A stretch of 64,000 nucleotides of DNA from Candidatus Yanofskybacteria bacterium (GTDB lineage: Bacteria; Patescibacteriota; Minisyncoccia; JACQLN01). The position numbers and the translations under genes are program-made. The notes below the pieces were generated by a model. The model did no database searches and had not been told where the DNA came from. It saw nothing but the letters and a program-made list of their open reading frames with translations. Within the stretch, counting starts at the first letter, position 1. The number at the start of each line of letters is the position of its first letter. The stretch is taken from positions 1,290 through 65,289 of the forward strand of contig CALRHC010000002.1 in the NCBI GenBank assembly GCA_943359335.1, written 5' to 3'. Below are positions 6,975 through 59,183 of this stretch, one piece after another.

Positions 6975-7625
6975 TTATTTAATCTGTATAGTTTTTAGAA
7001 TGTTTAAAAAATTTTCTTTATTAGTTGGATTTATTCTAACAATTCTAGCATTGTCTGTTGTTAGATCAATTATGGTCGATGGATCTGATTCTGGCAAAAC
7101 TCCATTATCTATAAATAGATCAGGTTGAATATCTTCTCTACTAAATCTTTCGATAATTTCTCTAGAATCTAACGAGGAAATTTCACCCGAAATATTAGCC
7201 GAAGTTGCTATAACGGGTCCTTCAAAATCTTTTATTAAACTTTGGCAAAAATAATTATCTGGCATTCTTAGAGCAATTGAATTTCTACCAGCGGTAAGCA
7301 AAAAAGAAATGCTGGGCTTTTTCTTTAATATAAAAGTAAATGGACCCGGCCAAAAACTTTTTAATATTTTTTCTCTAGACTTATCTATAACCGCCATGGC
7401 TTTCGCCATACTTATAGAATTAACTATAACCGGCAGAGGTTTTTTCTCTGGGCGTTTTTTAATAGCGAAAATTTTTCTTATAGCATCGTTATCAAAGACA
7501 TTAGCTCCCATACCATAAAGAGTGTCTGTAGGATAAATTATTACCCGCCCTTTTAACAAAGCTAACGCGGCTTCTTTTGAGGCTAACTCCGGAGAGAAAT
7601 TATTACGAATATCTAGTATCTTCAT
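6975..7625 (-). CDS. tsaC: L-threonylcarbamoyladenylate synthase (YrdC/Sua5 family)
   Basis: YPTDTLYGMGANVFD motif, 216 aa. Confidence 0.85.
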   Translation of the reverse strand: MKILDIRNNFSPELASKEAALALLKGRVIIYPTDTLYGMGANVFDNDAIRKIFAIKKRPEKKPLPVIVNSISMAKAMAVIDKSREKILKSFWPGPFTFILKKKPSISFLLTAGRNSIALRMPDNYFCQSLIKDFEGPVIATSANISGEISSLDSREIIERFSREDIQPDLFIDNGVLPESDPSTIIDLTTDNARIVRINPTNKENFLNILKTIQIK

Positions 7626-7669: not shown

Positions 7670-7769
7670 AATTCGCATTGGTTTGAGCGATTTCAAGGAG
7701 GTTCAATTTAAATATAAAGAGGGAGAATGTAAGTACCCCTCCTTGCAGGAGCGAAAACTGATGCGAATT
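7670..7769. repeat. intergenic repeat family F1 copy 1: conserved approx 65-nt core (GAGCGATTTCAAGGAGG...CCTCCTTGCAGGAGCGAAAA) closed by site-specific stem AATTCGCAT/ATGCGAATT
   Basis: 3 near-identical cores in window (also 11132-11216, 31345-31432); internal CAAGGAGG/CCTCCTTG hairpin; lies immediately 3' of leuS. Confidence 0.65.
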
Positions 7770-7772
7770 AAT

Positions 7773-10097
7773 TTAAACAATAAAATTTATAAACTTATCC
7801 TTAACAAATATAACTTTCTTTACTGGCGAAGTAAGATATTTAGAAATATTTTCGTTATTTTTAGCAGCTTCTTCAACATCTTTTTGCAAAGAGTCCACTG
7901 GCATTTTAATAACCGCGCGCATCTTAGCGTTTACTTGCACCACTATATCTACTTCTTTATCTTTAACCAGTTTAGAATCAAACTTTGGCCAAGGCGTTAT
8001 ATGAATAGATTTTTTATTCTTTAAAATTTCTCTAAATATCTCCTCGCTCATATGAGGCGCAAAAGGAGCCATGAGTTTAGCCAAAACTTCTAGTTCGTTT
8101 TTACCAACAGATTCCATATTAGCTTCAAATTCATTTAACAAAACCATCAAAGCCGAAACCGAAGTGTTATAACTCAAATTTTCTAAATCCTCTGTTACTT
8201 TTTTAATAGTCTTATTTAGAACTATTTGTAACTTAGGATTATCGTTTTGAGATTTGAGATTTAAAGTTTGAGATAAATTCCACACTCTATCTAAAAATCT
8301 GGTTATTCCTTTTATTCCACCGTCTCTAAAATCACCACCTTGATCAAACGGACCCAGAAACATTAAATACATTCTTAAAACATCAGCGCCATAATTTTTA
8401 ATGTATTCGTCGGGGTTAATAACATTACCCTTGGATTTAGACATTTTTGCGCCATCTTTTATCAATAATCCATGGGCACGGAATTTTTTAAATGGCTCGT
8501 CAAAATTGGTTAAACGTAAATCTTTAAATACCATCGCTAAAAATCGAACGTATAAAAGATGCAAAACAGAATGTTCTGCTCCGCCAATATACATATCTAC
8601 CGGAAACCATTTCTTAGTTACAGCTTGATCCCAAGCATATTTTTTATCTTTAACCGAAGCATAGCGCAAGTAATACCAAGCCGAATCTAAAAATGTATCG
8701 GAAACATCGGTTTCTCTTCTAGCTACTCCTTCGCATTTAGGACATTTAACTTTAAAAAACTTTTCGTCGGCCGCTAAAGGTGATTCGCTTGTACCGGTTG
8801 GTCTAAAGTTTTTTATGTAAGGTAACCTAACTGGTAAATCTTTTTCTGGCACCGGCTGCCAACCACATTTCTCACAATGAATCATTGGAATAGGTGCACC
8901 CCAATAACGTTGGCGAGAAACTAACCAATCCCGCAATCTAAATTGTGTTGTTTTTTTGCCCACACTCTTTTTTATCCCCTCCTCAATTGAAACGAGCGGC
9001 GCACCGCTTATCGCTAATTTAAATTTATTAGCGAATTCTAAATCGCGTTCATCGTGCGCTGGCACTCCCATAACTGCGCCTGTGCCATAACCTGCTAAAA
9101 CATAATCCGAAATCCAAACTGGAACCTTTTCGTTATTAGCTGGATTAATTGCAGAAATACCAGAAAAAATTCCGGATTTATCCTTATCTTGATTTTGATC
9201 GCGAGTAACTCTATCGGAAAGAGCTTTAGTAATATATTCTTTTACTTCTTCCGAAACTTGCCAACCAATATCTAACCAAAACTTTGCTTTCTCGGGCGAA
9301 ATTGCAATAAAGGTTACACCGAAAATTGTATCTGGGCGCGTGGTAAAAACTTCTACAAAATGTTTACCATCTTTTTGCCCTGTAACATCTGTTAAACGAA
9401 ATTTAATAGAAGCACCTTCCGATTTACCTATCCAATTTTTTTGAGCAATTTTTACTTTTTCACTCCAATCGATTTTATCTAAACCCTTTAAAAGCTTATC
9501 GGCATATTTAGTTATTCTAAAAAACCACTGCTCTAGTTCTTTTTTAATAACTTTTGTACCACATCTTTCACATTCACCACTTATAACCTGTTCGTCGGCT
9601 AAAACAGTTAAACAAGAAGGACACCAATTAACCGCAGATTTTTTGCGGTAAGCCAAACCTTTTTTATAAAGCTGTATAAAAATCCATTGTGTCCATTTGT
9701 AATATTCTGGGTCGTAAGTTTCTAATTTCTCATTCCAAGCAAAACCATTACCTATCATTTGTAGTTGGCGGTAAAAATTTTTCTCGGAAACTCTAGCTTG
9801 ATCCATTGGATGCTCGCCAATTTTTAAAGCATAGTTTTCGGAATGTATCCCAAAACCATCAAGCCCAATGGGCTCAAAAACATTAAAACCTTGCATTCTC
9901 TTAAAGCGACCATGAATATCACTCCCCACAAAAGCGTACATATTACCCACGTGCAATCCTTCGGCCGAAGGATACGGAAACATCATTAGGTTATAGAACG
10001 GATTTTTGGCATTTTTTAGATCTGGTTCATAAACCTTCTCAGCCAGCCATTTCTTATGCCACTTAGATTCTACTTTTTTATGATTATATTTGGCCAT
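7773..10097 (-). CDS. leuS: leucyl-tRNA synthetase
   Basis: 774 aa, HVGN(HIGH-type) and KMSKS motifs, C-terminal ...KVIFV..INFIV. Confidence 0.95.
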   Translation of the reverse strand: MAKYNHKKVESKWHKKWLAEKVYEPDLKNAKNPFYNLMMFPYPSAEGLHVGNMYAFVGSDIHGRFKRMQGFNVFEPIGLDGFGIHSENYALKIGEHPMDQARVSEKNFYRQLQMIGNGFAWNEKLETYDPEYYKWTQWIFIQLYKKGLAYRKKSAVNWCPSCLTVLADEQVISGECERCGTKVIKKELEQWFFRITKYADKLLKGLDKIDWSEKVKIAQKNWIGKSEGASIKFRLTDVTGQKDGKHFVEVFTTRPDTIFGVTFIAISPEKAKFWLDIGWQVSEEVKEYITKALSDRVTRDQNQDKDKSGIFSGISAINPANNEKVPVWISDYVLAGYGTGAVMGVPAHDERDLEFANKFKLAISGAPLVSIEEGIKKSVGKKTTQFRLRDWLVSRQRYWGAPIPMIHCEKCGWQPVPEKDLPVRLPYIKNFRPTGTSESPLAADEKFFKVKCPKCEGVARRETDVSDTFLDSAWYYLRYASVKDKKYAWDQAVTKKWFPVDMYIGGAEHSVLHLLYVRFLAMVFKDLRLTNFDEPFKKFRAHGLLIKDGAKMSKSKGNVINPDEYIKNYGADVLRMYLMFLGPFDQGGDFRDGGIKGITRFLDRVWNLSQTLNLKSQNDNPKLQIVLNKTIKKVTEDLENLSYNTSVSALMVLLNEFEANMESVGKNELEVLAKLMAPFAPHMSEEIFREILKNKKSIHITPWPKFDSKLVKDKEVDIVVQVNAKMRAVIKMPVDSLQKDVEEAAKNNENISKYLTSPVKKVIFVKDKFINFIV

Positions 10098-10997: not shown

Positions 10998-11017
10998 TAA
11001 TTTAAACTTATTAAAAC

Positions 11018-11110
11018 ATCTCTCCTAACAGCGATATATGAAGTTTGCCTAAGCAAGGTTCATCGTCAACTGACTTAGGTTTTCTCCATAAATGCTGTTG
11101 GGAGAGATGT
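11018..11110. repeat. repeat family F2 copy: palindromic element (GCGATATATGAAGTTTGCCTAAGCAAGGTTCATCGTC) nested inside outer inverted repeat CATCTCTCCTAACA/TGTTGGGAGAGATG
   Basis: RC is approx 85% identical to the 38-nt perfect palindrome at 20014-20051. Confidence 0.5.
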
Positions 11111-11131
11111 TAGGAAAAAACTTACCCTAAT

Positions 11132-11216
11132 ATCATTTTGAGCGATTTCAAGGAGGTTCGATTTAATATAAAGAGGGAGGATGTAAGTGCTCCTCCTTGC
11201 AGGAGCGAAAAATGAT
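11132..11216. repeat. repeat family F1 copy 2 (core plus site-specific closing stem AATATCATTTT/AAAATGATATT), immediately 3' of metG
   Basis: core approx 95% identical to copy 1 with 1-nt indel (excludes coding). Confidence 0.65.
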
Positions 11217-11228
11217 ATTAAAAAACAA

Positions 11229-12692
11229 TTAACTCAACCTAGGAAACAAATTATCACCCTTCTTAAAATTAATAGATGACTCGGAAAACCAAATTTGTTT
11301 TCTAATCTTTTCGCCTGCTTCTGGTAAAAATGGTTCAACTAAGTTTAGAATAACACCAAGTAAATAACCAGAGTTAGTCATTATTTTTTTAAATTGTTCT
11401 TCGTCTTTAACTTCCCAAGGTTTTTTGTCATTAATATATTTATCGGCAAAAGAAATTAAACCCCAAACATTAATTAAGGCTTCGTGTAGTTTAATTTCGC
11501 TTAAAGAAGATTCGTATTCTTTATAAAAATCATTGCAAACTTTTTTAACCTCGGGTTCTATATCTATAGAAAAATCAAATTTTACTGGGCTAATTTTTTC
11601 GCCTAATGTAACTGTACGGGCTACTAAGTTACCCAAACCATTGGCTAAATCGGCGGAATATCTATCTTCAAACTTTCTCAAACTAAAATCTCCATCATCA
11701 TAAGAAGGGATTTCTCGTAAAAGATAATAACGCAACGCATCCGTTCCATATTTTTTAGCAAGCGACACAGGGTCTACAATATTACCCAAACTTTTAGACA
11801 TCTTTTGTCCTTCAACCGAAATAAAACCATGAACAAAAATAGATTTTGGTAATGGCAAACCAGCCGACAAAAGTATACCCGGCCAAATAGCGGCGTGAAA
11901 ACGTAGAATATCCTTGCCTATCACTTGGAGATCGGCTGGCCAAAGTTTTTTAAATTGTTCAGTTTCATTTCCGTAACCAACAGCTGTAATATAGTTAGCC
12001 AAAGCATCGCACCAAACATACATAACTTGTTGTGCATCATTTGGTACTGGAATACCCCAAGGCAAATCTTTTTTGGGTCTAGAGAAACTAATATCTTCCA
12101 AACCAGATTCTATAAAAGATAAAATTTCATTTTTGCGCGATTCTGGAATTATTCTTAATTCATCATTCCTAATTCTTAATTCTATTTCTTTTTGGTATTT
12201 TGAAAGTTTAAAAAACCAGTTTTCTTGCTCCACTGTTTCTGGTTCTTTTTGGTGATCTAGGCATTTACCATCTATTAAATCTTTTTCTGTTTTAAAAGAT
12301 TCACAACCAACACAATAAAGTCCATTATATTTTTTCTTATAAATATCGCCCGAATCCAAAAGTTTCTGCCACAGCTTTTGAACACCTGGCCAATGATTTT
12401 TTTGATCAGTTGTTCTAATAAAACCATCCCAAGAAAGATTTAAAACATCTTTTAACTGTTTAAAATATTCTGCGTTTTCATTTACAAAATCCTGCACATC
12501 TTTATTCTCTCTTTCGGCTGCACGAAAAATCTTAACACCGTGTTCGTCGGTACCTGTTAAAAAGAAAACATCGTCACCTTTTATTCTGTGATAACGTGCC
12601 AAAACATCCGCTTGAATCTTTTCTAAAGCGTGTCCAATATGTGGTTTACCATTAACATAATCAATGGCTGTTGTAATATAAAACTTGTTCAT
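11229..12692 (-). CDS. metG: methionyl-tRNA synthetase (short form)
   Basis: HIGH (PHIGH) and KMSKS motifs, 487 aa. Confidence 0.95.
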   Translation of the reverse strand: MNKFYITTAIDYVNGKPHIGHALEKIQADVLARYHRIKGDDVFFLTGTDEHGVKIFRAAERENKDVQDFVNENAEYFKQLKDVLNLSWDGFIRTTDQKNHWPGVQKLWQKLLDSGDIYKKKYNGLYCVGCESFKTEKDLIDGKCLDHQKEPETVEQENWFFKLSKYQKEIELRIRNDELRIIPESRKNEILSFIESGLEDISFSRPKKDLPWGIPVPNDAQQVMYVWCDALANYITAVGYGNETEQFKKLWPADLQVIGKDILRFHAAIWPGILLSAGLPLPKSIFVHGFISVEGQKMSKSLGNIVDPVSLAKKYGTDALRYYLLREIPSYDDGDFSLRKFEDRYSADLANGLGNLVARTVTLGEKISPVKFDFSIDIEPEVKKVCNDFYKEYESSLSEIKLHEALINVWGLISFADKYINDKKPWEVKDEEQFKKIMTNSGYLLGVILNLVEPFLPEAGEKIRKQIWFSESSINFKKGDNLFPRLS

Positions 12693-22611: not shown

Positions 22612-22884
22612 CTAATCTCGGCCGTGTCCTCTGTTCCAAACAAAAGCGAAAACAAAGCCAACTACATAACCCATCAAAGCTGTAAACACTATAAGTTTAA
22701 CAGCTCGTGTGGCTATAAACGGAGAAACAACAAAAGGATTATTTAAAAAATGAATTCTGTAAATCATATCAAGCATTTTTTGCCCCAAACCCATAAAAAC
22801 CATAAGCGACCACATTGCATGCATCAAACCCACAAATAAACTTACAGTTAGAGCTGTTCTATTTTTATTTAATTTAACTGCCAT
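22612..22884 (-). CDS. small hypothetical membrane protein
   Basis: 90 aa, 3 TM. Confidence 0.4.
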   Translation of the reverse strand: MAVKLNKNRTALTVSLFVGLMHAMWSLMVFMGLGQKMLDMIYRIHFLNNPFVVSPFIATRAVKLIVFTALMGYVVGFVFAFVWNRGHGRD

Positions 22885-23015
22885 ATTTTTCTATGAATGA
22901 AATGAATAGTTAAAAATATGTGTCCGCCGTAGCTTTGCTTGATTCTTTATCAGTACCTGATAAATACGGGCGAAGGCGGGCCATACTCCTAAATATCTAT
23001 TTATTTAACGACCTT

Positions 23016-29605: not shown

Positions 29606-29964
29606 GGGGATGACTTGAATCGTCAAGGAACGTATCGATAAGAATTCGAAGCTGAGGTATACCACAAACTCATAAAACTGGTTACAAATAGTAAGTGCAA
29701 ACTTATTTAACGCTAAACCAGCGTTTGCCGTAGCTTAAAATCTATCGGCCATCGCCCTGTTTTTGCCCAAGAAGACAGTGTGCGGTGTTAACCTTTTGGG
29801 CTGCTGTCTAATGAAGGCGAACTTTAGACTTAAGACAATCGCCGAAAGTTTAACTTTTTTCACCATTCTTTAAGGGTTAAACTTAAACCAAGAATGGTTA
29901 GGCTTCGTAGCAGTTCAATCGAGAAATTTTTTGCACGCGGGTTCAATTCCCGCCATCTCCACCA
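29606..29964 (+). ncRNA. ssrA: tmRNA (transfer-messenger RNA)
   Basis: 5' GGGGATG pairs with CATCTCC-A-CCA 3'; T-arm GGTTCAATTCC; tag ORF GCA AAC TTA TTT AAC GCT AAA CCA GCG TTT GCC GTA GCT TAA (ANLFNAKPAFAVA) at 29697-29738. Confidence 0.9.
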
Positions 29965-31327: not shown

Positions 31328-31344
31328 TTCTTATTTTACCCTTG

Positions 31345-31432
31345 TTTGCTGCTGAACGATTTCAAGGAGGTTCGTTTTATTTATAAAGAGGGAGGATGTA
31401 AGTGCCCCTCCTTGCAGGAGTGAAGTAGCAAA
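31345..31432. repeat. repeat family F1 copy 3 (core plus site-specific closing stem TTTGCT.../...AGCAAA), between polX stop and ogt start
   Basis: core approx 90% identical to copies 1 and 2. Confidence 0.65.
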
Positions 31433-31445
31433 CAAAAAACATTAA

Positions 31446-33176
31446 CTATTTATTTTTTAAAAAACCTAACATTTTTTCTACCGACCAAGCGTTTATAATA
31501 TCCGCCTTAGTCGCCCATGCTCTGCGTGCCTGCGCAATACCAAGTTCTAAATATTTAAAGTGGTCGGTATGATGTGCATCAGAATCTATAGATAATTTTA
31601 CTCCTGCCTCTAGAGCCATTCTTACATGTTCATCTTTTAAATCTAACCTATCGGCAAAAGCATCTATTTCTAAAACTGTGCCAGTTCTTTTGGCGGCTTT
31701 TATAATTTCTTCAATATCTATTTCGTAAGCTGGTCGTTTATTAATAATCCTGCCAGTGGGGTGAAAAAGAATATCTACATTAGGGTTTTCCATCGCCTTA
31801 ATTATTCTTTTTGTTTGTTCGGCTTTAGTTAAATTAAATAAAGAATGCACCGCCACACCCACTACATCCAATTTAGCTAAAGTTTTATCGTCTATATCTA
31901 ACGAACCATCTTTTAAAATATTTACTTCTGCACCCTTTAAAACACGAAACTTGTAACCTGAAGCTTGAAACTTTTTATTTATTTTTTCTATCTCCGCCAT
32001 CTGCTTTTCTAGTTTCTTTTCATCCGATCCACCCGTCATCGCCAAAGATTTTGTATGGTCGGTAATTAAAATATATTCCAAACCCATTTTCATAGCAGCT
32101 TCAGCCATTTCTTCTATAGAGTTTTCGCCATCTGTCCAAGTTGTTTGAATCTGTAAATCGCCTTTTAAATCAGCGTAATTAATTAGCTTAGGAAGTTTAT
32201 TTTTACCAGCGGCCTCAACCTCCCTGTTTAAGTTCCTAAGTTCGGGTTCAATGTATTCTAAACCTAATTTGTTATATATTTCTTCTTCTGTTTTTCCTGC
32301 TATTAATTTCTCACCCTTATACAAGCCGTATTCGTTTAACTTATAGCCTTTTTCTATCGCGATTTTTCTTAATTCTACGTTGTGGTTTTTATCTCCCGTA
32401 AAATATTGCGCCGCCGCACCAAAACTTTCCGGTGCCACCACACGTAAATCTATTTCCAAACCATTATTTAGTTTAATAACACTTTTAGTTTCACCTTTAG
32501 CTACTACCCTTCCAACTTCGGGCATTTTTATAAACATATCCATAACTTCTCTGGGGTTTTTAGAAGTTATTAAAATATCTACATCGCCTATAGTTTCTTG
32601 CATTCGACGCGTCGAACCACATAATAAAACTTTATCGGCATATTTGCTTTTTTCTAAACGAGAAACAATTTCTCTAATTTCGGGTAAAACAAAACCCAAA
32701 ACATAGCGCCCACTATGTTTTTTAACAAACTCTAAACCTTTTAAAATTTTCTCTTCCGATTTTTCACCAAAACCTTCTAAATTTTTAATTAAACCCGCCT
32801 TAGCCGCCTTTTCTAACTGAGCTAAATTTTTAATGCCTAATTTTTTATATAGTTTATAAACACCTTTAGGGCCAACTCCTTCCACACTGGTTAAACCCTC
32901 TACATCTACCGGAATTTTTTTCTTTAAAGCTAAGTGCTCTTTAATTTTTTTTGTTTTAATATATTCTTCTATCATTTCCGACATGCTTTTACCCACACCC
33001 TGAATTTCTTCTAGAGCTTTGGTACCACCTCTTTTGTATATGTCTTTTAAATCTTCGCCTAAGTTTTCTATATTTACCGCCGCGCGTTCAAAAGCCTGTG
33101 GTTTAAAAGCCACCTCTTGCATAGCAAACAATATGGAAATTTCCTTGAATATTTTGGTTATCTCTTGGTTTATCAT
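31446..33176 (-). CDS. polX: DNA polymerase X family with C-terminal PHP domain
   Basis: HhH motifs, GSTRRMQETIGDVDIL Pol-beta NT motif, PHP histidines. Confidence 0.9.
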   Translation of the reverse strand: MINQEITKIFKEISILFAMQEVAFKPQAFERAAVNIENLGEDLKDIYKRGGTKALEEIQGVGKSMSEMIEEYIKTKKIKEHLALKKKIPVDVEGLTSVEGVGPKGVYKLYKKLGIKNLAQLEKAAKAGLIKNLEGFGEKSEEKILKGLEFVKKHSGRYVLGFVLPEIREIVSRLEKSKYADKVLLCGSTRRMQETIGDVDILITSKNPREVMDMFIKMPEVGRVVAKGETKSVIKLNNGLEIDLRVVAPESFGAAAQYFTGDKNHNVELRKIAIEKGYKLNEYGLYKGEKLIAGKTEEEIYNKLGLEYIEPELRNLNREVEAAGKNKLPKLINYADLKGDLQIQTTWTDGENSIEEMAEAAMKMGLEYILITDHTKSLAMTGGSDEKKLEKQMAEIEKINKKFQASGYKFRVLKGAEVNILKDGSLDIDDKTLAKLDVVGVAVHSLFNLTKAEQTKRIIKAMENPNVDILFHPTGRIINKRPAYEIDIEEIIKAAKRTGTVLEIDAFADRLDLKDEHVRMALEAGVKLSIDSDAHHTDHFKYLELGIAQARRAWATKADIINAWSVEKMLGFLKNK

Positions 33177-34077: not shown

Positions 34078-34716
34078 CTACTGTACTATCTTTCTGTGAC
34101 GTTCGGGTATGGTTCTATCTTGGTATCGTTTTTTAGGATCAAGATGGCTAAGTAAACCCAGTAATAAAAATGCCGACAAAAGAGATATTGCGCTTGCCGA
34201 AAGAAACAGTGTAACAAAACCATATTTATCGGCAACGTAACCACCAACCGCCGTTGCTACAGAAGCGGCGAGGCCGACCGAAAAAACACTATCCAAACTC
34301 CATTCAAAACTTATTCTCCATTTATCTACGTGGCGTGTAAAAATGGAATACCAAGCTGGTACCGCCCACGCCATTATAAAACCATAAAAACCCTGCACAA
34401 TGTATAAATGTACTGGCTTTGTAACAAAAATATAAGCAATAGGAATAAGTGAGCTTAAAAAATAACCCAAAAATAGTGCCCAAAAATCATCGCGTTCGCC
34501 GTCGGTTTTATCTAAAAAGCGTGCAATTGGCAATTGAAAAATAGATTTAACTATCCAGTAAATTGAGGCGGCAAAACCAGCAACTTTAGCTGAACCACCT
34601 TGTATTTGATTTGTTAAAAAAATTGCAAACACCGGACCAAAAGAAGCAAAAGCAGAATTATAAAAAAAATCTGCTGCAACAATAACTTTTATAATACGAT
34701 TTACACCTGTAAACAT
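34078..34716 (-). CDS. 6-TM MFS-half-like membrane protein
   Basis: GGYVADKYG MFS loop motif, 212 aa. Confidence 0.55.
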   Translation of the reverse strand: MFTGVNRIIKVIVAADFFYNSAFASFGPVFAIFLTNQIQGGSAKVAGFAASIYWIVKSIFQLPIARFLDKTDGERDDFWALFLGYFLSSLIPIAYIFVTKPVHLYIVQGFYGFIMAWAVPAWYSIFTRHVDKWRISFEWSLDSVFSVGLAASVATAVGGYVADKYGFVTLFLSASAISLLSAFLLLGLLSHLDPKKRYQDRTIPERHRKIVQ

Positions 34717-34763
34717 GCCAATTTTATTTATGAACGAAGTGAGTAATTATAAATATTGAGCAC
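34717..34763 (-). promoter_or_regulatory. conserved 47-nt 5' leader/promoter motif (family F3 copy A) immediately upstream of start codon; contains TATAAT
   Basis: approx 87% identical to 52916-52962 upstream of MazG-like gene. Confidence 0.5.
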
Positions 34764-41738: not shown

Positions 41739-42089
41739 CTATATTCTTTGACTATTTATAAGTCCCAAAAGCATTTTTGAAACCTCTGTATAATCTTTAT
41801 AAAAACTACTAAAAACTTCCTCATTTATATGACCATCGTCTTTTATTAGTTCAAGAAGTGATACGCATTCATAAACAGAACCACGAGCTATGGTATAAAA
41901 ATTTCTTTTATCTGCTTTAGAAAATTTACCACTACCTTCGGCAATATTTATTACCGAGCTAATTGAAGCCCTTCTTAATTGATCTCTAATATAAGAATCA
42001 ATCAACTTGTTGTTTCTCAATAAGTTAAGGATATTCTTATTCAATAATTTTGACTTGGAGTAAACGGAAAGTTTTTCAAAATCAAACAT
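41739..42089 (-). CDS. four-helix-bundle protein (23S rRNA intervening-sequence protein / Avd-like family)
   Basis: MFDFEKL...QLRRASISSVINIAEGSGKFSKADKRNFYTIARGSVYE matches TIGR02436-type pattern. Confidence 0.8.
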   Translation of the reverse strand: MFDFEKLSVYSKSKLLNKNILNLLRNNKLIDSYIRDQLRRASISSVINIAEGSGKFSKADKRNFYTIARGSVYECVSLLELIKDDGHINEEVFSSFYKDYTEVSKMLLGLINSQRI

Positions 42090-44165: not shown

Positions 44166-44753
44166 TTATTTAAACAACCTAAAAGAGTTATAAATTTTAT
44201 TTAAAATATCATTATCATCTTCACTATAGAAAATAAGGATTTTACCATCGCCGAGCCAAACATACATTTCATAAACATTACCTATCATTCCTTCGAAATT
44301 TCTGCGATGCAAAATAACCATGGCCTCGCCTAGTTTTTTTACCACAAAGGTGGAATAAAATTTTTCACCAATTACATTGTTTCCACCAAGATTAAAATAT
44401 AAACTCCTTAAGTTATTTTCATATTCGGCTAAGGATTTAAATTTAACATCTTGATAATATGCCTTGATTCCAGAAGCTTCATAATATCCATCCTTTTTAA
44501 AAAAACCAACAATCGCCACACCATCAGGATTTTCTTCTGCGCTATAATATTCCGGATATTTTATCTCAAACCCATACTTTTCATTTCTATAAGTTTTCCA
44601 ATTCGCGGTTTCGTCTGCGACTTTTTGATTTGCATTTGAATTTTCCGCTGGAGCATAAGCTGGTTTTTTAGAGAGATAAAAATACCCGCCACCGAGTAGT
44701 AAAATTCCTAGTGCGATGATAACAACATCTTTTATAAATCCTTTTTGGTTCAT
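44166..44753 (-). CDS. secreted/anchored protein, paralog A (shares N-terminal approx 70 aa with 45310..45819)
   Basis: MNQKGFIKDVVIIALGILLLGGGYFY... approx 80% nt identity over first 200 nt with paralog B. Confidence 0.55.
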   Translation of the reverse strand: MNQKGFIKDVVIIALGILLLGGGYFYLSKKPAYAPAENSNANQKVADETANWKTYRNEKYGFEIKYPEYYSAEENPDGVAIVGFFKKDGYYEASGIKAYYQDVKFKSLAEYENNLRSLYFNLGGNNVIGEKFYSTFVVKKLGEAMVILHRRNFEGMIGNVYEMYVWLGDGKILIFYSEDDNDILNKIYNSFRLFK

Positions 44754-45309: not shown

Positions 45310-45819
45310 TTATTTTGTGAATTTGAAGGTTGATAAAACCTTGTTACAAAAATCCAAAATATCTAATCCACCATAATCTACACAATTGGCATAAACTTTC
45401 CGATTATCTTTATAAAAATAAATTGGATTCTCGCCGTCTATATTATTATTTTTAGTAAATAAAACAGTTTTCACTGATACGATTTGATATCTACTATCCG
45501 CCACATTACTTATCGTTAATCTTGCTGGCTCGTAACCTCCCGCCAATAAATCATAACTCACATCTACCTGAAAATCGGCGGCATTTTGAAAAAAAGACTG
45601 ATCAATAACGTCTGAACTTTTTGGGTATCTGAATTCAATTTCATATTTTTCATTTCTATAAGTCTTCCAATCTTTAGTTTCATCGGCAATTTGATTTTGA
45701 TTCGTATTTTCCGCTGGAGCATAGGCTGGGTTTTTGGAAAAATAAAAATACCCACCGCCTAGCAGTAGAATCGCTAGTACAATAATGACAATGTCTTTAA
45801 TAAAACCTTTTTGGTTCAT
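45310..45819 (-). CDS. secreted/anchored protein, paralog B
   Basis: MNQKGFIKDIVIIVLAILLLGGGYFY... Confidence 0.55.
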   Translation of the reverse strand: MNQKGFIKDIVIIVLAILLLGGGYFYFSKNPAYAPAENTNQNQIADETKDWKTYRNEKYEIEFRYPKSSDVIDQSFFQNAADFQVDVSYDLLAGGYEPARLTISNVADSRYQIVSVKTVLFTKNNNIDGENPIYFYKDNRKVYANCVDYGGLDILDFCNKVLSTFKFTK

Positions 45820-52585: not shown

Positions 52586-52915
52586 TTATCTATTGTCTCC
52601 GCTACCGTGAATTTTATCTTTTTTAAACCTAGACGATAATTTTTCTATGTTTGCTTTTGCAATATCTTCTAGAGAAAATTTTAGCTCACCTGCCATTTGC
52701 GATATGTACCACAAAACATCGCCTAGTTCTTTTTTTATATCCTCCCTCTTTTCTTTGGTAATAATACCTTTATCATCTCTTAAAATTTTCTTTACCTTGT
52801 TAGCAACTTCTCCGGCTTCACCCACCAAACCCAGCGTTGGGTAAATAATATTTTTTCCAATATTAGGATAAGCTGCAGTTTTCTTAGCTTTATTTTGATA
52901 TTCTTTAAAATCCAT
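52586..52915 (-). CDS. MazG-like nucleotide pyrophosphohydrolase (ATG at 52915; track uses upstream TTG 52945)
   Basis: GEAGEVANKVKK...LGDVLWYISQMA MazG EExxE/D motifs. Confidence 0.75.
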   Translation of the reverse strand: MDFKEYQNKAKKTAAYPNIGKNIIYPTLGLVGEAGEVANKVKKILRDDKGIITKEKREDIKKELGDVLWYISQMAGELKFSLEDIAKANIEKLSSRFKKDKIHGSGDNR

Positions 52916-52962
52916 GCCAATTTTATTTGCGAACAAAGTGAGCAATTATTAAAATTGAGCAC
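52916..52962 (-). promoter_or_regulatory. conserved 47-nt 5' leader/promoter motif (family F3 copy B)
   Basis: approx 87% identical to 34717-34763. Confidence 0.5.
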
Positions 52963-58972: not shown

Positions 58973-59002
58973 CCCCCGACGTAAAGTCGAGGGACATTTT
59001 TT
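58973..59002 (+). terminator. intrinsic terminator CCCCCGAC-GTAAA-GTCGAGGG plus TTTTTT after pilB
   Basis: GC stem plus T-run. Confidence 0.6.
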
Positions 59003-59019
59003 GTGTTTCTGTTAAAAAA

Positions 59020-59183
59020 GTCTGCAGGCAAACCCCTTGGGCGTAAACGCCTTCGGGGTAACCCCCGAATCTTGGGAAACACAGGGAGAGAATCTCGCTG
59101 AGGATAGGCTCAGCCTCCTGATACAAGACCAGAAAACCAATCCGTCCTAAACTAAGCCAAGTTCCCTTTGCCTACAGGCTTTT
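59020..59183 (+). ncRNA. candidate structured RNA (class unknown): ends pair (TCTGCAGGCAAA/TTTGCCTACAGG), internal GC hairpins, 3' T-run
   Basis: GC-rich relative to flanks; hairpins CCCCTTGGGCG-TAAA-CGCCTTCGGGG, GAGA-GAA-TCTC, GCTGAG-GATAGG-CTCAGC. Confidence 0.4.

Follow-up and report, generated by a model that had tools for sequence, protein, structure and literature searches.

Short palindromic repeats lying between genes are well known in proteobacteria, Neisseria and streptococci; the genomes of the candidate phyla radiation (CPR, Patescibacteria) are tiny and tightly packed, and are usually called repeat-poor. The bacterial repeats that resemble miniature inverted-repeat transposable elements (MITEs) include Correia (NEMIS) in Neisseria, ERIC/IRU in enterobacteria and RUP/BOX in pneumococci, which are intergenic imperfect palindromes of 100-150 nt. 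Correia, ERIC and RUP repeats have fixed terminal inverted repeats, accompanied in Correia and RUP by a TA target duplication, and occasionally take on a secondary role as terminators or processing sites. The palindrome-associated transposable elements (PATEs) derived from insertion sequences (IS) of the IS200/IS605 type carry distinct left and right subterminal hairpins that are strand-specific and recognised as single-stranded DNA (ssDNA); they move by 'peel and paste', insert 3' of a fixed tetra- or pentanucleotide without target duplication, are gained and lost seamlessly, and have an orientation tied to the replication strand. For repeats of the repetitive extragenic palindromic (REP) kind, a RAYT (Y1 transposase) gene is found in the same genome, usually flanked by the repeats. 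IS200/IS605-type transposition is described as targeting the lagging-strand template (PMC6006769). REPINs lie outside genes, do not code and measure only ~100 nt; as ssDNA or RNA they fold into one long hairpin, in which compensatory changes are common. They sit at gene ends in either orientation and spread in a population-like manner within a genome, and their two outer ends, 16-mers overlapping REP sequences, are conserved around a variable middle spacer (PMC3116915). Here we describe F1, a hairpin repeat with three copies in a 64,000-nt stretch of a Candidatus Yanofskybacteria contig (the window, meaning this whole stretch), and compare it with these systems.

F1 is probably a mobile DNA family of ~95-nt elements, which are non-coding and non-autonomous and belong to the REP/MITE-like class of interspersed palindromic repeats; our literature search turned up no account of repeats of this kind from CPR bacteria. 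Its copies are gained and lost together with their closing stem, occur in both orientations, have moved in a composite with a second hairpin (F2), decay, and have one folding strand. An earlier sequence-only reading of the window had offered two explanations, a structured RNA with a covarying closing helix or a miniature element inserted into the loops of terminator hairpins. The covarying structure and the mobility both held, but a conserved RNA gene is at odds with the two orientations and with presence and absence among relatives, and the insertion into terminator loops had to be given up.

Results

F1 is a covarying hairpin

A repeat search returned the three copies, at the sites already proposed, as the top direct-repeat family of the window (Table 1). 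The hairpins are 93-100 nt long (n=3), and the cores, earlier put at more than 90% identity, are 89-93% identical between copies with one 1-nt indel. In the window, the inner hairpin pattern CAAGGAGG-N20-45-CCTCCTTG has exactly three matches, whereas 100 shuffles give an expectation of 0.00. Each copy is indeed closed by its own, internally complementary outer stem, and these stems are longer than first noted, namely 15, 12 and 12 bp with G.U pairs included. All three copies lie 3-10 nt past the minus-strand stop codons of leuS, metG and polX, as had been observed, and the next minus-strand genes downstream are tsaC/YrdC, tatD and an Ogt-like gene, respectively. Since plus-strand hairpins thus sit among minus-strand genes, copies 1-3 are antisense to their surroundings. 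The plus-strand RNA of copies 1, 2 and 3 folds with -34.9, -28.8 and -33.6 kcal/mol (z -5.0, -4.1 and -4.5), and the minus-strand fold is 5.5-8 kcal/mol weaker.

Read on the plus strand, each copy forms one continuous imperfect rod. Its closing stem, P1, spans 8-18 bp and keeps its pairing while varying in sequence. P2 consists of 9 nt per side (GAGCGAYUU and CAGGAGCGA), which pair in the order G.A, A.G, G-C, C-G, G.A, A.G, Y-G and U-A with one U.C mismatch, so that two tandem G.A/A.G pairs flank a 2-bp helix. P3 is an 8-bp stem resembling a Shine-Dalgarno (SD)/anti-SD duplex (CAAGGAGG/CCUCCUUG), and it carries a loop of 34-36 nt, the 5' half of which (UUC followed by an AU-rich stretch) varies in sequence and length and the 3' half of which is conserved (AGGGAGGAUGUAAG-NRC).

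A covariance model was built from 14 F1 copies and then used to find divergent copies in fetched loci (given below as L numbers, in their own coordinates); covariation was evaluated on the resulting 18-sequence model alignment, with 500 shuffles and with registers slid by 1-3 columns. The covariation anticipated by the sequence-only reading was clearly present: 17 of 26 pairs change on both sides (8.2 in shuffles), 83.5% of the alignment cells are paired (66.4% in shuffles), and the covariation score is 0.47, against 0.13 for shuffles and at most 0.11 for slid registers. None of the 500 shuffles matched the observed pairing values. Compensatory variants of P3 were found in L001b (CAGGGAGG/CCTCCCTG), L019 (CGGGGAGG/CCTCCCTG) and L015 (CAAGGGGG/CCCCCTTG), and copy 3 and L003a have A-U instead of G-C in the inner 2-bp helix of P2. 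In L002, from Niyogibacteria, the entire G.A zone is swapped for seven Watson-Crick pairs (CGCGGCC/GGCCGCG), which places the G.A positions within the helix; this copy also has an extra hairpin in the variable part of the loop.

Such strong covariation would also be expected of a functional structured RNA, either a small RNA or a cis-acting hairpin of 3' untranslated or intergenic regions acting in stability, processing or termination, possibly as an SD/anti-SD two-state switch, with the spread through genomes being secondary. We consider this rather unlikely. It draws support from the core being kept across genera, even in L002 with its rebuilt P2, from the G.U polarity described below, and from a T-run that, on a by-eye reading of the flanks, comes after the stem, on the upstream gene's strand, in about half of the copies. 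An alternative pairing also speaks for it in part: AGGGAGG/CCUCCUU can form in 98% of the alignment cells, and the loop tract AGGGAGG could possibly replace the 5' arm of P3 as a two-state switch, but this pairing shows no two-sided covariation. Furthermore, no Rfam 15 family reaches its gathering threshold at F1, in agreement with the earlier impression that the family is not a known one. The only Rfam matches in the window are a tmRNA (29606-29964, 106.8 bits) and one tRNA (357-440), and permissive scans of copies 1, 2 and L002 gave chance hairpin matches only, far below threshold. At the three window copies no plus-strand promoter-like site and no terminator-like site was found, and none of them qualifies as an intrinsic terminator; a T-run is present at some copies elsewhere (L003a, L005 and L019).

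Other candidates were set aside. The 1-nt indel had been taken to rule out coding, and it does shift the only plus-strand open reading frame (ORF) crossing copy 1; a small ORF or a start-stop ORF (AUGUAA in the loop) was rejected because the indel breaks the plus-strand ORF and the AUG is lost in L001b, L018 and L019. Hammerhead, k-turn and C/D-like motifs do not fit in their core motifs, and there is no 3-nt bulge, since pairwise covariation is seen at the three pairs beside the G.A tandem.

One strand is the folding strand

Summed over 14 copies, the full-length P1 stems comprise 169 Watson-Crick, 18 G.U, 1 A.C and 2 other pairs, and the model alignment holds 20 G.U against 4 A.C pairs (binomial p = 0.0015). 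The preference for G.U over A.C on one strand marks that strand as the folding strand, and thus points to selection on the folding of one defined strand, as DNA or as RNA. A mutation bias was rejected as the cause of the G.U excess by reasoning rather than by measurement: the usual replication-linked C-to-T excess falls on the G-rich strand, and the folding strand is C-rich, so that such a bias would yield A.C.

Whole hairpins are gained and lost at gene junctions

Syntenic loci were found via LeuS and PolX homologues in relatives whose proteins are 75-88% identical. Between polX and ogt, where the window has copy 3 in a 118-nt gap, the genes overlap by 4 nt (ATGA) in L021, a NUDIX gene without any element is present in L020, and an F2 hairpin is found in L022. 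The tsaC-glyA junction is empty in the window (TAA-A-ATG) and in L019 (7 nt); it holds a complete F1 in L018 and, in L015, a decayed, half-deleted F1 remnant that retains the L018 arm. The glyA and PAP2 genes overlap in the window, which is empty here, and in L018, and the same junction carries an F1-like copy in L015 and F2 in L019. Finally, the 25 nt between the AI-2E gene and metG are empty in the window, and this junction is occupied by F2 in L015, by a third, CGAAT-rich hairpin family in L018 and by F1 in L019.

Four empty sites (gaps of 1, 7 and 25 nt, and overlapping genes) contain no palindrome, and the arm sequences of the closing stem are absent from them. Therefore, the whole hairpin, including the closing stem, is inserted DNA, and copying of the closing stem from the target site was rejected. 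The presence and absence in close relatives, the decayed remnant and the occupation of one junction by different families also argue against a structured RNA.

The same sites contradict the proposal of the sequence-only reading that a core of 65-70 nt enters pre-existing, site-specific terminator hairpins at the loop and splits their stems. The copies between convergent genes in L003a, L005 and L006 do look as this would predict: they are flanked by GC-rich arms together with an A-run and a T-run, as bidirectional terminators are. One orthologous junction also has wholly different arms around a kept core. However, the orthologous empty junctions lack the closing stem as well as the core, and one and the same stem is seen at two loci of one genome, in L001 of another genome and, as a consensus, in F2. 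The T-run reported for copy 1 exists but trails the hairpin on the minus strand (GCGAATTTTTATTGG) and not on the plus strand, and copies 2 and 3 have none on either strand. Insertion into terminator loops is thus highly improbable.

At the junction shared by L005 and L006, the cores are 92% identical and the stems unrelated, with flanking coding sequence of ~85% identity. Two separate insertions are here as likely as divergence in place; they are plausible because junctions are often hit independently. Other F1 copies combine unrelated stems with near-identical cores, and within the metagenome-assembled genome (MAG) JACQLN01 even the variable part of the loop is identical. Different source copies, fast compensated change of the stem or gene conversion limited to the core could each account for such unrelated stems on near-identical cores.

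F1 travels in a composite with the sister family F2

Copy 2 is the right part of a 213-nt composite, which consists of an F2-like hairpin, the linker AGGAAAAAACTTACCC, an F1 with the P1 arm TAATATCATTTT and the tail AAAAAACAA. The composite of the window (11015-11228, metG-tatD) and that of L025 (17950-18172, dprA-topA) are 94% identical, and their homology stops sharply at both ends, the right one being the tail. They are antisense at metG-tatD and sense at dprA-topA, on the same DNA strand. The TTACCC part of the linker recurs 5' of copy 3 (TTTTACCC) and, as TAACCC, 5' of L010. In addition, the P1 sequence TAATATCATTTT was also found in L001 of another genome, and a closing-stem consensus, (A)nATATCATTCY / RGAATGATAT(T)n, is common to F1 and F2. 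Because the same stem appears at two loci of one genome, in L001 and, as a consensus, in F2, the closing stem travels with F1.

F2 has an architecture like that of F1 around a core of its own (GAACAGC-AUUAUGGAGAAGAC...AAAGAGGCUCCAU-AUCGUCUGUGA) and lies at gene junctions of the same genomes. Its L015 copy at ~6983-7109 bears two additional GC-rich stem-loops. Other hairpins were seen in these loci: the third family, of ~100 nt and rich in CGAAT/ATTCG, occupies the AI-2E-metG and leuS-tsaC junctions of L018 (7355-7454 and 12482-12589, the latter with -40.7 kcal/mol); L019 has further long hairpins at leuS-tsaC (180 nt, -69 kcal/mol) and metG-tatD; and an 80-nt hairpin, orthologous between L020 (12610-12689) and L022 (12248-12327), lies downstream of their ogt-like gene and has an outer stem (AAGGAGGTTTTGAT / ATCAAAACCTCCTT) that is another of the SD/anti-SD type.

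Distribution and orientation of F1 copies

Exact-pattern scans covered 185,579 species genomes (596 Gb) and, separately, metagenome contigs of JGI/ENA. The former gave 6 loci in 4 Parcubacteria-type groundwater MAGs and the latter 6 loci, 4 of them distinct, all from Parcubacteria or groundwater. The sequence-only reading had staked the family on further copies, and 15 more were obtained from related groundwater Parcubacteria. In all, ~25 copies were seen in ~370 kb of sequence. The hosts of F1 are thus groundwater Parcubacteria (Patescibacteria) of a narrow clade. A fourth copy of the same genome lies at the dprA-topA junction ~6 kb outside the window (10 kb were fetched on each side), and MAG JACQLN01 has at least 5 copies on small contigs. 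No phage or plasmid blastn match was found in either collection, and the strict F1 pattern gave 0 matches in viral contigs; looser half-patterns gave 15, all of which were dismissed as chance matches in GC-rich coding sequence with no model match. In MAG L001 (6845-7040), the dprA-topA junction contains two F1 copies in opposite orientation, 18 nt apart. L014, a 993-nt metagenome contig of the same strain, ends at position 1 inside copy 3, a break to be expected because an assembler meets a repeat there.

The folding strand is antisense to both neighbours in at least 9 copies (the three window copies, L001, L003b, L008, L015, L018 and L019), which also tells against a structured RNA, and it is sense in six (L002, L004, L007, L010, L001b and the fourth copy of the window's genome); three copies lie between convergent genes. 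No conserved protein gene accompanies the copies. The genes dnaA and dnaN lie ~7 kb past the right end of the window, where, judged from this gene content, the replication origin is probably situated; in L023 (1-4900), beyond that end, rnpA, yidD and yidC diverge from dnaA and dnaN. The genes of the window are on the G-rich minus strand, point away from this origin and are co-oriented with replication, and the plus strand has a GC skew of -0.14 (C-rich). All four copies of the window's genome are on the plus strand. When the surrounding locus is read on the strand of the element, 15 of 18 copies show a negative GC skew, a count that is confounded with gene orientation. That the orientation of F1 follows the replication strand is a lead only.

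Element ends and candidate enzymes

The first unpaired base 3' of the hairpin is G in 14 of 25 F1 and F2 copies, often as GA or GT, and the base just 5' of the hairpin is usually A; a second group (copies 2, 3 and L001b) finishes in AAAAACA instead. The element may truly end, or be cleaved, at these flanks. The 25 flanks showed no fixed target motif.

A classical MITE, mobilised by a DDE transposase that works on inverted terminal repeats in double-stranded form (P1 plus P2) and with a target-site duplication hidden by the AT-rich flanks, would also be small, non-coding and present in both orientations at gene junctions. The inverted-repeat ends with a consensus common to F1 and F2 suit this explanation, and AT-rich direct repeats of ~7-9 nt can be drawn around some insertions. 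Nevertheless, the arms covary and their mismatches are mostly G.T on one strand, which is unexpected for double-stranded terminal repeats; the outer arms differ wholly between copies with near-identical cores; the candidate duplications stand at inconsistent offsets, some of them in conserved coding sequence; and neither a parent IS nor split ends were seen in the sequence examined. A DDE-type origin is therefore quite doubtful.

Several results weigh against F1 being a mobile element. A Pfam scan of 30 window ORFs gave no transposase, and tblastn of 223 kb with approximate IS608 and IS200 TnpA queries gave nothing below E = 0.1, which is a weak test. Direct repeats of at least 7 nt flank 6 of 25 copies (5% expected), again with inconsistent offsets and partly in conserved coding sequence, and neither a target-site duplication nor exact element ends could be established at the flanks. 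The G.U excess is partly inherited together, with an estimated ~14 independent G.U events against 2-4 A.C events, and it is from this strand asymmetry that we infer a single-stranded intermediate. Furthermore, the core is conserved across genera more than a purely selfish repeat needs, which may reflect selection for a function in the host, gene conversion between copies or insertions that took place independently.

Other features of the window and its relatives

A 50-nt repeat (CATGCCAATTTTATTTATGAACGAAGTGAGTAATTATAAATATTGAGCAC), unrelated to F1 and 66-88% identical between copies, begins at the start-codon CAT of minus-strand genes in at least its first two copies, and resembles a leader or promoter region common to them. 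A GC-rich multi-stem structure (-41 kcal/mol, with sub-hairpins such as GGGCGTAAACGCC) occupies part of a 357-nt gap between plus-strand genes and has no Rfam match above the gathering threshold. Tandem paralogous PsbP_2-like genes explain the direct repeats D2 (130 nt) and D6 (70 nt). Three relatives have a pair resembling a diversity-generating retroelement (bAvd plus RVT_1); the corresponding region of the window has a 23S_rRNA_IVP (Avd-like) ORF only, with no reverse transcriptase among the ORFs scanned.

Table 1. Positions of the F1 and F2 hairpins, their stems and neighbouring features (window coordinates unless an L locus is named).
Feature	Position	Strand	Details
Copy 1, whole hairpin	7670-7769	+	covariance model 96.2 bits; between leuS stop (7773-7775, minus strand) and tsaC/YrdC start (7625)
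Copy 1, P1	7670-7684 / 7755-7769	+	15 bp, 2 G.U
Copy 1, P2 zone	7685-7693 / 7746-7754	+	GAGCGAUUU / CAGGAGCGA
Copy 1, P3	7694-7701 / 7738-7745	+	CAAGGAGG / CCUCCUUG
Copy 1, loop	7702-7737	+
Copy 2, whole hairpin	11128-11220	+	covariance model 100.1 bits; 8 nt from metG stop (11229-11231, minus strand)
Copy 2, P1	11128-11139 / 11209-11220	+	TAATATCATTTT / AAAATGATATTA
Copy 2, P2	11140-11148 / 11200-11208	+
Copy 2, P3	11149-11156 / 11192-11199	+
Copy 3, whole hairpin	31342-31435	+	covariance model 94.3 bits; insertion between polX and ogt-like gene
Copy 3, P1	31342-31353 / 31424-31435	+	TTGTTTGCTGCT / AGTAGCAAACAA, 1 G.U
Copy 3, P2	31354-31362 / 31415-31423	+	GAACGAUUU / CAGGAGUGA, G-C to A-U
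Copy 3, P3	31363-31370 / 31407-31414	+
Composite, F2-like hairpin (left half)	11015-11111	-	AACATCTCTCCC-AACAGCATTTATGGAGAAAAC...CTTCATATATCGCTGTTA-GGAGAGATGTT, 18-nt arms; minus-strand sense
Composite, linker	11112-11127	+	AGGAAAAAACTTACCC; common to second composite at dprA-topA
Composite, 3' tail	11221-11228	+	AAAAACAA; common to second composite; as AAAAACA in copy 3 and L001b
F2 copy	L004 4211-4293
F2 copy	L018 8942-9018
F2 copy	L019 14417-14500
F2 copy	L022 11766-11843
F2 copies	L015 8608-8686, 12402-12479, ~6983-7109
leuS	7773-10097	-
metG	11229-12692	-
polX	31446-33176	-
50-nt repeat	22877-22926, 34714-34763, 52913-52962		CATGCCAATTTTATTTATGAACGAAGTGAGTAATTATAAATATTGAGCAC
GC-rich multi-stem structure	58985-59100
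Avd-like ORF	41739-42089		23S_rRNA_IVP
bAvd and RVT_1 pair	L018 3700-5011, L020 20094-21514, L021 2336-3848
PsbP_2-like genes	44166-44753, 45310-45819		tandem paralogues

Discussion

If F1 is a mobile DNA element, as we favour, the G.U asymmetry suggests that it is copied or moved via a single-stranded intermediate of its folding strand. This intermediate would be ssDNA, as in REP/REPIN-RAYT or IS200/IS605-type elements, RNA being less likely. The conserved apical core would then be the recognition site of a trans-acting enzyme with its gene elsewhere in the genome, and the stem would need only to pair. Some copies possibly serve the host now as terminators or RNA-stabilising hairpins.

A more far-reaching view would take F1 and its sister families as a new type of strand-specific mobile hairpin, with a conserved apical module for recognition or switching, mobilised by a class of enzymes so far unconnected with elements of this kind in CPR bacteria, or else as a domesticated structured RNA or DNA device oriented by the replication strand. 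The apical module would comprise the SD/anti-SD stem, the duplicate purine tract and the tandem G.A pairs, beneath which the closing stem evolves freely. We think this distinctly unlikely.

With F1 as a probable mobile element, several related hairpin families of ~90 nt repeatedly colonise the same junctions of these genomes, turning overlapping genes into spacers of 100-230 nt. The repeats are a source of assembly breaks and useful markers of strain history, and organisms that have few regulatory tools may gain terminators or processing sites from them. The clean signature of folding on one strand points to a mechanism that works on single strands.

Among the described systems, F1 resembles REPINs in being an extragenic, multi-copy hairpin with compensatory changes. 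Its conservation is inverted, however, with an apical core conserved at 89-100% and a variable closing stem; no GTAG-type REP motif was recognised in it, and its host is a CPR bacterium. With Correia, ERIC and RUP repeats it shares the intergenic position near gene 3' ends, either orientation, and presence or absence among relatives, whereas it differs from them in its variable closing stem, in having no established duplication and in lacking sequence similarity; to our knowledge, none of these families shows a one-strand G.U bias like that of F1. As in a classical MITE, the element is small, non-coding and polymorphic in insertion between relatives, but its arms follow only a loose consensus in place of fixed terminal inverted repeats. 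The lack of a clear duplication is compatible with PATEs, from which F1 differs in forming a single hairpin and in having no fixed target motif, and, contrary to the IS608 rule, its folding strand mostly coincides with the C-rich strand. F1 behaves like REPINs, like Correia, ERIC and RUP repeats and like IS200/IS605 miniatures, yet differs from each in defining features; it is a previously undescribed repeat family, but not a new principle.

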